A program made the translations under genes and the position numbers. Shown here in pieces: positions 1,463 through 5,544 of a stretch of DNA of 6,403 nucleotides. Below the pieces are notes generated by a model. It searched no databases and had not been told where the DNA came from. It saw only the letters and a list, made by a program, of their open reading frames with translations. Source of the stretch: a virus. Its lineage: Duplodnaviria; Heunggongvirae; Uroviricota; Caudoviricetes. The stretch lies in the IMG/VR virus record IMGVR_UViG_2636416140_000005; one strand, written 5' to 3'. The stretch's first letter is position 1; every line of letters begins with the position of its first letter.

Positions 1463-1470
1463 CAGAAGCT

Positions 1471-1499
1471 GCGGCACGTCGTATGCAGGAACGTGCCGC
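1471..1499. other. Perfect 9-bp inverted repeat (GCGGCACGT / ACGTGCCGC) with 11-nt loop between convergent tfa-like gene and sitD; possible bidirectional terminator or RNA-stability hairpin
   Basis: Stem 1471-1479 pairs with 1491-1499, GC-rich. No clean U-tract follows on either strand, so it is not a canonical intrinsic terminator. Confidence 0.35.
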
Positions 1500-1662
1500 G
1501 GTTGGCTGGTAAACTTTCGATAGTGCGAGTATTGAATGATTTCTAGGCGTTATCGATTTTACGTATTTTTTGCATGATAGAATTCGTACCTCCTCCCAAC
1601 GACCTTCCATGGCTTTCCGGACTTCTGTAGGCTGGCGGACGATGCTGTCCTCGGATGTTGTG

Positions 1663-2520
1663 CTAATTGGGTGATAACAGATCCTGTGTATGGGCGTTTC
1701 CCTTTGTGCGTGCGTTGATGCTGGTAACGGTAAACGTCATGATGAACACGACCGCGAATAAGACGACAATCGTCGGAGCTGGTGCGCTGTCGATAAAAAA
1801 GGACAGCCAGACACCAGTCATTGACACTATTACCGATATGCCAGTCGCCAGTAGGAGCGCAATATGAAAGCGTTGTGTCAGGAGTACTGCAATGGCGCCA
1901 GGCGTAATGAGCAGAGAAATAGAGAGAATGATACCTACTGCTTTCAGCGTCGCCACAATGGTCAGGGAAACCATGCACAGCAGCCCATAATGCAGCCATC
2001 TCGTATGCAAACCGCTTACCTGCGCCTGTTGATAATCAAAGCTGAACAGCAAAAAATCCCGCCATTTTACGCTAATAACAAGTGTAACCAGCCCGGCAAT
2101 AATCACCGTCTGGATTATATCGCCGATGGTTATCCCGAGCATGTCGCCGAAAAGAATATGGTCAAGATGTACGTCTGGTTTAATTGCAATATACAAGATC
2201 AGACCTGCGGCAAACATGCCAGAAAAAACAATCCCCATAACTGTATCTTGCTTGATTCGGCTGTTGTCTTTCAGGTATCCCGTCGCCACCGCGCAGAATA
2301 CTCCGGCGACGAATGCCCCTGTAGCCAGAGGTAACCCCAGAATCCAGGTAAGCACGATGCCAGGAAAAACCGCATGACTCATCGCGTCACCCATCAGTGC
2401 CCAACCTTTCAGGACCAGAAAGACCGACAGCAGCGCACAGGGTATGGAAACTACCAGTGAAATCAGCAGTGCGTGACTCATAAAGGTGAACTGCAGTGGC
2501 TCCAGTAATAATGCCATCAT
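1663..2520 (-). CDS. sitD: Mn2+/Fe2+ ABC transporter permease SitD
   Basis: 285 aa, strongly hydrophobic multi-pass protein. Last gene of a four-gene - strand operon; its ATG (2518-2520) overlaps the sitC stop (2517-2519) by 2 nt. Paralogous in character to the adjacent permease. Confidence 0.88.
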   Translation of the reverse strand: MMALLLEPLQFTFMSHALLISLVVSIPCALLSVFLVLKGWALMGDAMSHAVFPGIVLTWILGLPLATGAFVAGVFCAVATGYLKDNSRIKQDTVMGIVFSGMFAAGLILYIAIKPDVHLDHILFGDMLGITIGDIIQTVIIAGLVTLVISVKWRDFLLFSFDYQQAQVSGLHTRWLHYGLLCMVSLTIVATLKAVGIILSISLLITPGAIAVLLTQRFHIALLLATGISVIVSMTGVWLSFFIDSAPAPTIVVLFAVVFIMTFTVTSINARTKGNAHTQDLLSPN

Positions 2521-3374
2521 GAGCGATCCTCCAGCGCTTTATGCGCACGCCGACGATTTGCCAAAAGTCCATGGGTGGGCGCAAATACAAATGCTAAAAG
2601 AAACAGCAGTGTCTGCGCCACCACGATGATTCCACCTGTCGCGCCGTCCAGAAAGTAACTGACCCACGCGCCGAGGAAACTGGTTACACTGCCAATAGTT
2701 ACAGCAATTATGAGCAGGCGGGGAAAACGATCGGTTAACAACCATGCTGTTGCACCGGGAGTCACCACCAGACAGATCACCAGAAAGGCACCAACCGTTT
2801 GCAGCGCCGCAACGGTCGAAACCGACAGCAGGGTGAAGAAGAGGATTTTTAATCTGCCCGGATGTAATCCAATAGCACGGGCGTGATTCTCGTCGAAAAA
2901 GGTCACCATAAGATCTTTCCATTTGAAAAAAAGCACGATGATCGAGAGAATGCCAATGATAGTGAGTTGCAGGATATCCGCCGGATCGATTGCCAGAATA
3001 TTGCCCAGGACGATGGTCTGAATGTTCACGGATGTCGGGTTCAATGACACCATAAACAGCCCCAGGCCAAAAAAGGACGAGAAGATCAGGCCGATGATGG
3101 CATCTTCTTTTAAGCGGGTGCGTTGGTTAAGAAACAGCATGCTGCCCGCTGCCAGTCCGCCGGAAAAGAAGGCTCCCAGAGAAAACGGAAGCCCCAGCAT
3201 ATATGCCCCCGCAACACCCGGGACAATAGAGTGCGACAGCGCATCGCCAATCAGCGACCAGCCTTTTAGCATCAGATAGCATGACAGGAAAGCGCAGAGA
3301 CCGCCGACCATTGCCGAGACCCACATCGCATTGAGCATATATTCATAGCTGAAGGGTTCCAGTAGCACGTTCAT
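2517..3374 (-). CDS. sitC: Mn2+/Fe2+ ABC transporter permease SitC
   Basis: 285 aa hydrophobic membrane protein. Its ATG (3372-3374) overlaps the sitB stop (3371-3373) in an ATGA arrangement. Sits between the ATPase and the second permease. Confidence 0.88.
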
Positions 3375-4198
3375 CTTGCTTCCCTCTGCACCGCTGACGG
3401 TCGATGTGCCACAAAAGGGCGTTCATCGTCAGTAATAATGCTTTCTTCCGAGCCGTTAAGTGTGACATGGCGCAGTACGCCGCTAAAAGCCAGCTCCAGG
3501 TTCTCGGCTGTAAAAGTGGTGTCTGTCGGCCCGCTTGCCAGGACGGTGCCTTTGACCATGACCGTATAATCGCAAAATGTCGTGACTGAGCCGAGATTGT
3601 GCGTTGAGACAAGCATCGTTTTGCCTTCCGCGCGTAACTCCCTCAACAGGCTGATGATTTTCGCTTCGGTTTTCACATCAACGCCGGTAAAAGGTTCATC
3701 CAGCAGGATCACATCACCCTGCTGTGCAATCGCTCTCGCCAGAAAGACGCGTTTCTTTTGTCCACCGGAAAGCTCGCCGATTTGACGATGGCGAAAATCC
3801 ACCATATCGACACGTTCCAGCGCATCGGTGACAATCTGACGATCCCTCTTTTTGGCTATACGCAACATACCCATATGCCCATAGCGGCCCATCATCACCA
3901 CATCTTCCACCAGTACAGGAAATGACCAGTCAACCTCTTCTGACTGAGGGACGTAGGCAACCAGGTTTTTCTGTAGCGCCTGTCGCGTGGGAATACCCAG
4001 AACAGATATCTTTCCGCTGGTCAGACGCACAAATCCCATAATCGCTTTAAACAACGTCGATTTTCCGGAACCGTTTACCCCAACCAGAGCGGCAATAGAT
4101 CCACTTGGTACTGTGAAGGATGCATCGCGCAGTGCTGTGTGCCCGTTACGCCAGGTGACAGTAACATCATTAACGACAATGCCTGCAGATTGCATCAT
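3371..4198 (-). CDS. sitB: Mn2+/Fe2+ ABC transporter ATP-binding protein SitB
   Basis: 275 aa with Walker A (GVNGSGKST), ABC signature (LSGGQKKR) and Walker B (ILLDEP) all visible. Its ATG (4196-4198) overlaps the sitA stop (4198-4200) as TAATG. Confidence 0.92.
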
Positions 4199-5112
4199 TA
4201 TTTCTCCCTTTTCCCGGCTTTAATTCCCTGTACCAGCGTACTGGTAGTAACCTTAAGAAGGTCGATATACGTAGGTACCGGGCCGTTTTCTGTGCTCAGG
4301 GAATCGACATAGAGCACACCGCCGTAGTGTGCGCCGGTTTCACGCGCAACCTGACGCGCTGGATTATCGGAAATCGTACTCTCGCTAAAGACTGCCGGGA
4401 TATGATTTTTCTTAACCATATCAACAACCTTACGTACCTGCTGCGGTGTTCCTTGTTGATCGGCATTAATCGGCCACAGATAAAGCTCTTTTAGCCCCAA
4501 ATCGCGTGCGAGATAAGAAAAAGCCCCTTCACTGGTGACCATCCATCGCTGATTCTCAGGGAGTTCCGTAATCTGCTTACGCAGGGGGGCAAGGGTTTGG
4601 GTAATCTTGGCTTTATAAGTATCGGCATTACGTTGGTAGGTTTGTGCATTTGCCGGATCGTATTTTATCAACGCATCACGAATATTATCGACGTAAATCA
4701 GAGCATTATCTGGCGACATCCATGCATGGGGATTAGGTTTGCCCTCATAGGGTCCTTCGGTGATCCCTACTGGCGTCACACCCGAAGAGACAATTACTTC
4801 TGGAACCCCATTGAGATGCTGGTAAAAGCGTTGGAACCACAATTCCAGATTCATACCATTGGCGAGAATCAGTTGTGCCCCCTGCGCACGTTTAATATCG
4901 CCAGGGGTAGGCTGATACTCATGAATTTCTGCACCAGGCTTGGTTATGGATGAGACTTCTGCAGCATCTCCAGCCACGTTTTTGGCCATATCCGCGATGA
5001 TGGTAAATGTTGTAATGACCTTGAATTTTTCAGTTGCACTTGCCTGAAATGCGATCGAGCAGGTGAGGGCGAGGCACCCCAAGAGCATGGTTACTTTTTT
5101 TATTGAGTGCAT
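4198..5112 (-). CDS. sitA: Periplasmic Mn2+/Fe2+ substrate-binding protein SitA (cluster A-I metal-binding SBP)
   Basis: 304 aa with an N-terminal signal peptide ([32 protein letters not shown] cleavage site). First gene of the operon, preceded by metalloregulator operators. I recognise the sequence as enterobacterial SitA from memory. Confidence 0.9.
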
Positions 5113-5144
5113 AATTTAGTACCTATAGTGAGCAAAATTAGAAC

Positions 5145-5166
5145 AAACATAGCAACGGCTATGTTT
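5145..5166 (-). promoter_or_regulatory. MntR operator: perfect inverted repeat AAACATAGC-N4-GCTATGTTT
   Basis: 22-bp palindrome 33-54 nt upstream of the sitA ATG, with perfect 9-bp arms. Matches the MntR box architecture known from enterobacterial mntH/sitA promoters. Confidence 0.6.
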
Positions 5167-5193
5167 TATAGCATAACCTATACAAAATGAAAA
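5165..5193 (-). promoter_or_regulatory. Putative sigma70 promoter of sitABCD (-35 TTTTCA at 5193-5188, 17-nt spacer, -10 TATAAA at 5170-5165)
   Basis: Hexamers read from the - strand. The -35 overlaps the Fur box and the -10 and predicted start site overlap the MntR palindrome, which fits repression by both. Hexamer choice is inference. Confidence 0.3.
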
Positions 5194-5207
5194 TAATTAT
5201 CATTAAC
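5189..5207 (-). promoter_or_regulatory. Fur box (- strand reads GTTAATGATAATTATTTTC; 16/19 to GATAATGATAATCATTATC)
   Basis: 19-mer 77-95 nt upstream of the sitA ATG, counted by eye against the Fur consensus. Overlaps the proposed -35 element. Confidence 0.65.
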
Positions 5208-5321
5208 AGCTTTGAGGCCTAAAACAGGGATTAGGTTGTTTCCTGCTGGCGACATGATATTGAGGAAAAAAGTAGAGCAGCTATTAGGCTTTGAAATGAC
5301 TTTATGAGGAAAATTGTTGAT

Positions 5322-5535
5322 GGCAAAAAAGGGGCAAAAAAAGAGTGGGTTATCGTAGCTTATTGTTGTCGCTGATAATGTTTAACATATTGAAAAATAA
5401 ATAAAATACTTATGAGTCAGATAGTTGTGATTTTTGCCCTTACTTGTTCAGGTTGTATTGTTCTTTCTTTGTAATTTGTTGATTTTCTTGCATTATTTCA
5501 GTTCTCTGGTACTAAATGGGGCAAATTGGGGGCAA
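5322..5535. repeat. GGCAAA-rich repeat set in an AT-rich block: tandem pair 5322-5342, inverted copy 5431-5439, tandem pair 5518-5535
   Basis: TGGCAAAAAAGGGGCAAAAAAA at 5321-5342 and TGGGGCAAATTGGGGGCAAAC at 5517-5536 are imperfect direct repeats; TTTTTGCCC at 5431-5439 is the reverse complement. The second pair lies 10-27 bp from the integrase stop codon. Confidence 0.4.
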
Positions 5536-5544
5536 ACTTTGCAA

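Follow-up and report, generated by a model that had tools for sequence, protein, structure and literature searches.

Organization of the sit locus

The window analysed here, a stretch of 6,403 nt, is a whole 6.4-kb draft contig with repeats at its bounds (Table 1). Four contiguous minus-strand open reading frames, all of them intact, encode a complete SitABCD metal importer, which confirmed the earlier observation of sitABCD in the window. The lengths of the four genes equalled those of the RefSeq-annotated sitABCD of EIEC strains, and sitC and sitD are annotated as such in relatives. The SitB model PRK15056, 'manganese/iron ABC transporter ATP-binding protein', was matched with 593.7 bits (cut-off 393). 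The solved structures closest to SitA were Yersinia pestis YfeA (E 4.7e-124), Synechocystis MntC and a Salmonella SitA fragment. Neighboring sit genes overlap by 1-4 nt, which fits one single operon. SitABCD belongs to the cluster A-I ABC importers, with Mn2+ and Fe2+ as substrates, and transport by the copy in the window is suggested by published work on near-identical loci; Sit carries both ions and is under MntR repression (review PMC3852070).

Table 1. Positions of the genes and sites in the window, with the supporting matches
Feature	Position	Strand	Evidence or remark
Tail-fibre gene, 3' part, 295 codons	1-888	+	phrog_2636 'tail fiber protein', E 1.9e-126
DUF4376 tail-fibre-associated gene, 207 aa, last late gene	839-1462	+	Pfam DUF4376, E 1.2e-16; phrog_1141 tail fibre, E 5.4e-88
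GC-rich hairpin directly past last tail gene	~1467-1503	.	stem ~13 bp, -28.8 kcal/mol, z = -2.65
Backbone segment X, common to sit-negative phages	1475-1616	.	
Extra stretch relative to sit-negative relatives, largest extent of the sit insertion	1550-5321	-	Rac-SA53, Jnd12
sitD, permease subunit, 285 aa	1663-2520	-	Pfam ABC-3, E 7.2e-76
sitC, permease subunit, 285 aa	2517-3374	-	Pfam ABC-3, E 3.8e-83
sitB, ATPase subunit, 275 aa	3371-4198	-	Pfam ABC_tran; NCBIfam equivalog PRK15056
sitA, periplasmic Mn2+/Fe2+-binding protein, 304 aa, N-terminal signal peptide	4198-5112	-	Pfam ZnuA, E 1.9e-85
MntR operator, perfect palindrome AAACATAGC-N4-GCTATGTTT	5145-5166	.	32 nt upstream of sitA ATG
Fur box GTTAATGATAATTATTTTC	5189-5207	-	16/19 positions equal the Fur consensus
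attP-type attachment region	5322-5544	.	left arm = attR side, right arm = attL side of EIEC prophage (alignment)
Phage-borne ttcA 5' end, MQENQQITKKEQYNLNK then stop codon	5440-5493	-	translation = first 17 residues of EIEC ttcA
26-bp recombination core TTGTTCAGGTTGTATTGTTCTTTCTT	5444-5469	.	one exact site in window; identical in attL, attR and window
Rac-type tyrosine integrase intR, C-terminal ~279 codons	5545-6384	-	Pfam Phage_integrase; phrog_1
IS1 right end, terminal 19 nt, truncates intR, ends contig	6385-6403	.	

The sit operon runs opposite to the late genes and converges on the two plus-strand tail-fibre genes, as a preliminary description had proposed; relative to the integrase gene, it is located downstream. 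Its limits for the region between the phage genes, 1463 and 5544, proved exact, since the last base of the DUF4376 gene is at 1462 and the stop codon of the integrase starts at 5545. Both flanks matched the expected tail-fibre and integrase families in Pfam and PHROG. The first tail-fibre gene is open to the contig end in the gene call on the source contig, and its counterpart in EIEC RMDEC364 is annotated 'prophage tail fiber N-terminal domain-containing protein'. In phiP27 and Rac-SA53, the last tail gene was ~80-81% identical in nucleotide sequence to the DUF4376 gene.

The hairpin reported at the convergent junction is real. Rather than a canonical intrinsic terminator, however, it is a piece of phage backbone at which mosaic breakpoints recur. 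Both strands lack a U-tract here, and no terminator was called by the scan; nor did the scan and folding find a canonical terminator downstream of sitD. The hairpin is kept in the sit-negative Jnd12 and Rac-SA53, and also in H22 and SPF_0923, and the homology of many genomes to the window begins at 1475-1477. Matches to segment X extend up to 1549 in Rac-SA53, 1561 in phiP27 and 1582 in Stx phages. A homologue of 1490-1616 (82%) is present in phage 21, but on the opposite side of sit compared with the window.

Regulatory region

The claim that the operon has its own regulated promoter is supported by two operators upstream of sitA. The MntR palindrome was an exact match, its half-sites are identical to those present once in the K-12 mntH upstream region, and the Fur box was the sole site of its kind in the window; neither pattern had any match in 200 shuffles. 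A Fur box has also been reported upstream of phage-borne sit (PMC6969025). The promoter scan of the window found no convincing -35/-10 pair beside the Fur box. The sole consensus promoter match (5326-5299) lay upstream of the Fur box, and the total number of matches did not exceed that in shuffles. The regulation of this copy is probably that of the published, near-identical loci. In an LF82 lysogen of Perceval, sit transcription was 4- to 13-fold above the prophage background (PMC9928086).

Attachment site and integrase fragment

The GC content was 0.50 in sit, 0.53 in the tail genes, 0.33 in 5113-5544 and 0.46-0.53 in the flanks. The AT-rich block described earlier therefore stands out in the profile, whereas sit is close to its flanks and its composition by itself gives no sign of a foreign origin. 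The block is not just a boundary of the cargo, however: ~220 bp of it is a phage attachment site. In EIEC genomes the two halves of this site lie ~42 kb apart. Compared by eye, the core is the same as the 26 bp that the record of phage Rac-SA53 labels 'attB'. Copies of GGGGCAAA at 5331, 5518 and 5529 are candidate arm-type Int-binding sites. The ttcA used for comparison is the gene annotated beside intR in EIEC. The attP-type site with its ttcA start, the IS1-cut IntR and the tandem junction in H22 discussed below are points absent from the preliminary description.

The flanking integrase matched the Phage_integrase domain and the integrase family phrog_1 (E 1.1e-56, window 5545-6399), in agreement with the earlier assignment, but it is only a dead fragment, and possibly that of a neighboring prophage. 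It is without ~132 N-terminal residues, its frame is open to the IS1 end, and at the nucleotide level it is 99.8% identical to the intR of EIEC strains, which has its full length of 411 aa. IS1 cut the gene at 6384/6385. A sister contig (L007) extends 56 nt past the window end, and its first 75 nt agreed at 73 positions with the right end of the IS1A annotated in E. coli MLI023K1.

Boundaries of the cassette

Alignment with the sit-negative relatives Rac-SA53 and Jnd12 delimited the insertion. Rac-SA53 matched window 885-1549 and 5322-5486 with 104 bp between, and Jnd12 matched 1475-1537 and 5322-6384 with ~40 bp between the aligned blocks. Because these relatives hold only ~70-100 bp in place of 1550-5321, the sit operon is an insertion, of at most this extent. 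The core cassette common to all carriers spans ~1656-5249; the cassette covers 1643-5303/5309 or 1643-5249 in lambda-type phages and 1656-5327 in plasmids. On one side of it are the hairpin and backbone past the last tail gene, and on the other is the attachment-site P' arm.

Relatives of the locus

Prophage-borne sitABCD in this arrangement is already known, with good descriptions from phages of E. coli and Shigella. The nearest relative of the window is the EIEC prophage between ttcA and uspF (RMDEC364, CFSAN029787, VL46 and others), which is alike in tail-fibre genes, sit cassette, att core and intR. Window 6-5486 matched the right end of this prophage at 99.7% (megablast) or 99.2% (single gapped blastn alignment), and 5444-6384 at 99.8%. 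The EIEC prophage is normally integrated and single, with a full intR at attL and sit ~42 kb off at attR beside uspF, whereas the window has the two prophage ends side by side in attP order, with intR truncated by IS1. Its genes comprise intR-xisR, a Rac-like early region, a helicase, tRNAs, holin/lysozyme, terminase, head and a baseplate-type tail. The earlier label of a lambdoid phage is thus apt for the genome organization and the early and lysis genes of this relative, but not for its tail module, which is of the contractile type. The sit-bearing element is not a lambda-like siphovirus, and 'lambdoid' refers to genome organization only.

Lambda-type coliphages (phage 21, OL657228; Perceval, OV696612; ev017, ev207, 1H12 and the Lambda_ev series) carry a cassette 98% identical to window 1643-5303. 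As in the window, sit is antisense to the tail fibres and lies between the side-tail-fibre genes and attP/int, with a Fur box upstream, but these phages have lambda-type siphovirus tails. The proposed accessory-gene position between tail fibre and att/int is identical in phage 21 and many lambda-type phages. Phage 21 differs in its integrase and att site (icd), and ~2 kb of other genes separate sit from the attachment site that it adjoins directly in the window. Among infant-gut E. coli, sitABCD with a Fur box was found on 70% of the sequenced lambda-type phages of one study (PMC6969025).

The 'PAI sit' known from Shigella and E. coli (PMC7545054) is a phage-like, IS-ridden, unstable island carrying sitABCD in Shigella/EIEC and some E. 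coli (Fisher et al. 2009, via PMC7545054). The window shares the IS1-interrupted, short-contig signature of these genomes; insertion sites reported for the island are aspS and yecN (review PMC7545054), compared with ttcA for the window. ColV/ColBM virulence plasmids (e.g. pAPEC-O2-ColV, NC_007675) carry a sit operon 97-98% identical to the window over 1656-5327, but these are conjugative plasmids in which aerobactin genes adjoin sit and tail genes are missing. The Rac prophage and Rac-SA53 share with the window the integrase family, the 26-bp core, the hairpin and backbone past the last tail gene, and the P' arm, but are without sit; in Rac-SA53 the 104 bp run from backbone to P' arm. Yersinia pestis YfeABCD and Salmonella SPI-1 SitABCD, with Mn2+/Fe2+ transport and Fur/MntR control (PMC3852070), have the same transporter family and gene order. 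Unlike the window, they are chromosomal or pathogenicity-island loci and not phage cargo, and they are orthologues, not copies of this cassette.

Origin of the locus

We put at about 90% the probability that window 1663-5112 is a sitABCD operon carried as a moron, an accessory unit expressed from a promoter of its own under host control, at the far end of the late arm of a lambdoid prophage of the IntR type, at the 5' end of ttcA. This supports the earlier interpretation of sitABCD as cargo, with qualifications on the attachment site, the integrase, the lambdoid label and the hairpin. That sit is instead ordinary core chromosome, with the phage genes as unrelated neighbors, is extremely improbable. 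Its GC content near that of the flanks would agree with such an origin, but only 2337 of the 5426 complete E. coli genomes carried sit (at 1683 places in chromosomes and 1060 in plasmids), and it occurs in sequenced phage genomes and is replaced by a short stretch in the sit-negative relatives. This distribution, the phage carriers and the sit-negative relatives refuted the core-chromosome reading.

An IS-bounded composite element of the ColV/ColBM style that landed in the prophage by chance is an improbable vehicle, although the cassette has sharp ends that recur in unrelated backbones (left 1643/1656, right 5249/5303/5327), 1084 plasmid records match and IS1 lies at the window edge. The cassette has no flanking IS or inverted repeats inside the window, the nearest IS being 1.06 kb away, within int. 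Moreover, the match to pAPEC-O2-ColV runs to 5587, and on this plasmid sit is accompanied by the attP-type junction plus 43 nt from the 3' end of intR, which suggests that the phage was the donor and the plasmid the recipient.

As for the sit-attP-int junction, its most likely chromosomal origin would be an array of tandem prophages at ttcA, the sit phage followed by a decayed Rac-like neighbor, because the complete genomes of H22 and Jnd12 show an analogous junction. E. coli H22 has the order ttcA, full intR, whole prophage, sitDCBA, attP-type junction, 231-bp int fragment, remnants and uspF; its sit prophage is whole with its own full intR, while the tandem neighbor is decayed. In Jnd12, a sit-less prophage is followed by the same junction and a full Rac. 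The integrase adjoining sit in the window may likewise belong to the tandem neighbor and not to the sit phage.

A possible, though doubtful, alternative is a single permuted prophage or episome, that is, a fixed circular phage genome in which the integrase is the sit phage's own. It could have arisen by homologous recombination or cointegration of the IS1 in int with a chromosomal IS1, or the contig could come from excised circular phage DNA. Identity of the int fragment is indeed 99.8% with the EIEC sit-prophage intR, compared with only 96.7-97% for other Rac-type intR, the junction is an exact attP, IS1 lies inside int, and 'PAI sit' occurs at several chromosomal sites, with IS-driven rearrangement stressed (review PMC7545054). 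However, the complete genomes with the same junction are plain tandem arrays at ttcA, and the int'-attP-sit order recurs in assemblies from 40 collection blocks, which argues for a fixed chromosomal structure and not a transient circle.

Proposed working of the locus

A prophage with the Rac-type IntR would integrate into the ttcA 5' end, and the phage-borne ttcA start would then replace that of the host gene. The attP-type junction in the window reads sit-side arm, 26-bp core and int-side arm with the replacement ttcA start. A promoter region at ~5113-5260 is predicted to drive all four sit genes as one transcript, which is antisense to the tail-fibre genes. SitA would enter the periplasm and bind metal, SitC and SitD would form the membrane channel, and SitB would hydrolyze ATP. 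Since the promoter region has both a Fur box and an MntR palindrome, expression is likely to respond to metal: sit would be off when iron and manganese are plentiful and on under metal limitation, and this switching would be independent of the phage repressor and the late genes.

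Gene content of the window

The window corresponds to a complete 6403-bp draft contig (ANAN01000125.1, assembly GCA_000815945.1), reverse-complemented, with repeats at both contig ends. The limits of 1463-5544 noted earlier for the region between tail genes and integrase proved accurate, as they run exactly from the stop of the last tail gene to the stop of the integrase gene. The tail-fibre and DUF4376 ORFs share 50 nt (839-888), read in different frames, and are annotated likewise (L001 15834-15883) in the EIEC relative, a prophage between ttcA and uspF. A 53-aa ORF (1449-1610) had no PHROG match. 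The Rfam scan of the window gave no Mn riboswitch and no other RNA family above threshold, and there was no tRNA.

Features located in the window
Feature	Position	Strand	Remarks
Tail-fibre gene	1-888	+	last 295 codons
DUF4376 tail-fibre-associated gene	839-1462	+	207 codons
Hairpin	~1467-1503		stem ~13 bp
sitD	1663-2520	-	ABC-3 permease
sitC	2517-3374	-	ABC-3 permease
sitB	3371-4198	-	ABC_tran ATPase domain
sitA	4198-5112	-	ZnuA-type solute-binding domain
AT-rich spacer	5113-5544		432 bp, between sitA and integrase gene
Palindrome	5145-5166		upstream of sitA
Fur-box match	5189-5207		upstream of sitA
attP-type junction	5322-5544		core 5444-5469; small ORF 5440-5493 (-)
Tyrosine integrase gene, 3' two-thirds	5545-6384		intR fragment
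IS1	6385-6403		19 nt, contig end

The sit operon and its control region

Domain content, gene order and orthology to named sit genes bore out the preliminary description of a complete four-gene metal ABC importer. SitB scored 593.7 bits against a cut-off of 393 for the NCBIfam equivalog 'manganese/iron ABC transporter ATP-binding protein'. No dedicated HMM exists for SitA, SitC or SitD, which scored under the cut-offs of related families. Among solved structures, Yersinia pestis YfeA was nearest to SitA (E 4.7e-124), with cyanobacterial MntC and a Salmonella SitA fragment next. At the nucleotide level the genes were 97-99.9% identical to the RefSeq-annotated sitA-D of 2337 E. coli genomes. Their order (binding protein, ATPase, permease, permease) is that of cluster A-I SitABCD, and their lengths equal those of the annotated sitABCD of relatives, indicating an intact operon. 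The start/stop overlaps of 1-4 nt are expected of one translationally coupled transcript, and the gene coordinates fit a single predicted operon. Mn2+/Fe2+ uptake and metal-dependent repression are established for near-identical loci (PMC3852070), and the role of Sit in uptake of these metals and in virulence is well documented (PMC3852070, PMC4746246).

Upstream of sitA we found a single Fur-box match, GTTAATGATAATTATTTTC, agreeing at 16 of 19 positions, and a single perfect palindrome, AAACATAGC-N4-GCTATGTTT. Neither pattern occurred in 200 shuffles. Identical palindrome half-sites occur once in the upstream region of K-12 mntH, a classical MntR- and Fur-controlled gene. The region thus carries candidate Fur and MntR operators, which supports, at the level of sequence, the regulatory half of the regulated promoter proposed earlier. 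The promoter hexamers, in contrast, did not emerge from the scan: no clear -35/-10 pair was present, the sole consensus hit (5326-5299) lay upstream of the Fur box, and total hits did not exceed those in shuffles. An earlier publication describes a Fur box upstream of sit on phages (PMC6969025), and both MntH and SitABCD are repressed by Mn-MntR according to a review (PMC3852070). In a lysogen of Perceval, the sit-carrying phage of LF82, sit was transcribed 4- to 13-fold over the prophage background (PMC9928086).

Cargo status and limits of the cassette

sitABCD is phage cargo: it is accessory in E. coli, present in sequenced phage genomes and absent from sit-negative relatives. Among 5426 complete E. 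coli genomes, 2337 (43%) carried it, in 1683 chromosomal and 1060 plasmid places. In phage 21, Perceval, ev017, ev207, 1H12 and many 'Lambda_ev' phages, sit (98% identity) is placed between the side tail fibre and attP/int. This repeated position, together with insertion limits obtained by alignment with sit-negative relatives, upheld the description of sit as cargo beside tail-fibre genes. As in a phage moron, sit lies at a module boundary within the phage genome and is missing from close relatives. The arrangement is already known, and the preliminary description read it correctly. An infant-gut study of E. coli temperate phages found sitABCD with the Fur box on 70% of sequenced lambda-type phages and counted it as a moron (PMC6969025), and the 'PAI sit' of Shigella and E. 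coli shows phage-like genes, IS elements and several insertion sites (PMC7545054). A literature search combining phage 21, sitA and lambdoid found nothing.

Two sit-negative relatives delimited the insertion. Rac-SA53 matched the window at 885-1549 and again at 5322-5486, with 104 bp between, and E. coli Jnd12 matched 1475-1537 and 5322-6384, with about 40 bp separating the aligned blocks. The insertion therefore spans at most 1550-5321. Lambda-type phages shared 1643-5303/5309 with the window (some only to 5249), and plasmids shared 1656-5327, leaving a common core of about 1656-5249. In a repeat search, the cassette bounds showed neither direct nor inverted repeats.

The left junction (1463-1662) had been described as convergent and hairpin-containing. 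The hairpin is present (-28.8 kcal/mol, z = -2.65), but it is not a canonical terminator and forms part of the phage backbone. Judged by alignment, the hairpin and the segment following it (to ~1549-1616) are backbone, as both occur after the last tail gene in the sit-negative Rac-SA53, phiP27, Stx phages and Jnd12. The terminator scan did not report the hairpin, which has no U-tract, and the whole left junction folded no better than shuffles (z = -0.21). A role as bidirectional terminator was therefore rejected as unproven. No canonical intrinsic terminator was found between sitD and the tail gene. Since the cassette starts only 7-20 nt past the sitD stop, it brings no terminator of its own, such as a moron would have. 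With many other sit prophages, homology sets in at 1475-1477, within the hairpin, which marks the hairpin as a mosaic breakpoint. In E. coli H22, N25, 'Salmonella phage SPF_0923' and the locus L006, the tail-fibre-assembly genes upstream of this point differ from those of the window; L006 has a Caudo_TAP gene and a methyltransferase there. A sub-threshold Rfam match to CssrB, a Shigella sRNA encoded on the chromosome, covered the hairpin (1445-1500; 30.3 bits, gathering score 76, E 0.0029).

The attachment site and the broken integrase

On the right, the preliminary description had an AT-rich block bounding the cargo. The block exists, but it is more than a boundary, consisting of ~110 bp of sit leader and ~220 bp of attP. 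In the EIEC relative, window 6-5486 (99.7%, megablast) corresponds to the right end of the prophage adjoining uspF, and window 5444-6384 (99.8%) to intR, the Rac-type integrase gene, adjoining ttcA about 42 kb from that end. Alignment with attL and attR of this prophage showed that the window joins the left arm of attR to the right arm of attL through the shared core TTGTTCAGGTTGTATTGTTCTTTCTT. The core is the same 26-bp stretch that is annotated as attB in the Rac-SA53 record (read by eye). Both the att core and the att arms of a Rac-type (IntR/ttcA) module are thus present. The core lies inside a short minus-strand frame (5493-5440) encoding MQENQQITKKEQYNLNK and then a stop, the same as the first 17 TtcA residues, so the phage carries a replacement 5' end for the gene that it splits. 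Repeats of GGGGCAAA surround the core (5331, 5518 and 5529), and sit-negative relatives have more copies of GGGGCAAA or GGCAAAA on the P' side. These repeats are putative arm-type Int-binding sites. Such repeats occur at L015 7970-8022 and L020 3705-3750, two loci compared with the window, and the sit insertion abuts the repeat array.

The full-length tyrosine integrase of a Rac-type module is lacking. IntR of the EIEC relative has 411 aa, of which the window keeps residue ~133 to the end (~279 residues, two substitutions), and the intR frame runs directly into IS1. The sister contig L007 extends 56 nt beyond this contig end, and over its initial 75 nt it agrees with the right end of an annotated IS1A at 73 of 75 positions. 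With its promoter and N-terminal DNA-binding part lost, the integrase is almost certainly inactive. An exact-match scan of species-representative genomes for the IS1/int junction gave no match, and none of the complete E. coli genomes was continuous from sit through int to 6384. The IS1 in int of E. coli MLI023K1 was considered as the same insertion and rejected: on sequence inspection it lies 4 bp away in the opposite orientation, and is independent. This independent event suggests an IS1 target hot spot in intR (window 6385-6403; locus L016, 6890-7010).

Origin of the sit-int junction

In a normally integrated prophage, the sit end and the int end lie at opposite ends. An exact attP-type join between them can arise only from a tandem array or from a circular form that became fixed. 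We favour derivation of the window from a tandem array at ttcA, with a probability of about 0.55-0.6, by analogy with H22 and Jnd12. In H22, ttcA is followed by full-length intR and xisR, then Rac-like early genes, heads and tails of lambda type, sitDCBA, the junction seen in the window, an int fragment of 231 bp, remnants and uspF. In Jnd12, a sit-less prophage at ttcA is followed by the same junction and then by complete Rac. In a tandem array, the broken integrase would belong to the neighbouring prophage. The int fragment, however, is nearer to the allele of the EIEC sit phage (99.8%) than to other Rac alleles (~97%), which speaks for one phage genome that became fixed in permuted order by way of its IS1 copy. 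We consider this second origin the less likely of the two. H22 also has a frameshifted 'metal ABC transporter permease' (L003 17685-18285), 67-69% identical to sitD, between a decayed second prophage and uspF, which may be the remnant of a different sit-like locus.

Vehicles of the cassette

The EIEC relative is arranged as int-xis, recombination genes, repressor region, helicase, tRNAs, holin/lysozyme, terminase and head genes. It has a contractile (baseplate J/gp47-type) tail module with fibres related to phiP27, whereas other carriers of the cassette have lambda-type siphovirus tails. The lambdoid order (int-xis, recombination genes, immunity, replication, lysis, head, tail, cargo, att) is found in the EIEC relative and H22, and the window holds the last three modules only. 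The earlier term 'lambdoid' therefore fits the genome organisation and the cargo position, but not a particular tail type. In the SPF_0923 record (L014), uspF, ompN and part of nifJ come after sit; these genes belong to the host chromosome past attR. This record resembles a prophage region cut from a genome, and its flanks are E. coli-like.

Plasmid pAPEC-O2-ColV (L013 4001-7932) contains window 1656-5587 in one piece, including sit, the whole attP-type junction and the final 43 nt of intR, whereas in most other sit plasmids the match stops at 5327. The retained junction and intR end point to a phage origin, and the locus appears to come from a Rac-integrase phage whose order was circular or tandem. 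Phage 21 differs from the window in another way. An 82% homologue of window 1490-1616 (L002 11656-11781) is found upstream of sitA instead of downstream of sitD; its join to the cassette, near window position 5303, falls at the 3' half of the hairpin. The two phages therefore have the cassette on opposite sides of one backbone landmark, which suggests a separate capture or a rearrangement.

Tentatively, and at somewhat less than even odds, the window may be the fossil circular (attP) form of a sit-carrying Rac-integrase phage, and a phage of this kind may have been the source from which at least one ExPEC/APEC ColV-type plasmid acquired its sit locus. If so, the position of the backbone stretch 1475-1616 in phage 21 would mark a second, independent capture of the 3.65-kb cassette, and a single cassette, lacking its own recombinase, would have switched between unrelated vehicles at least three times.

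Implications

The new value of the window is modest, and lies in the exact insertion boundaries, the attP-type junction that supplies a new ttcA start, the integrase broken by IS1 and the junction of phage origin that a ColV plasmid still carries. Sit is an established fitness and virulence factor in Shigella, ExPEC/APEC and Salmonella, providing Mn2+ and Fe2+ when the host restricts metals and contributing to defence against oxidative stress. That temperate phages carry it accounts in part for its patchy distribution over chromosomes and plasmids, as already published, and the window is one more example.
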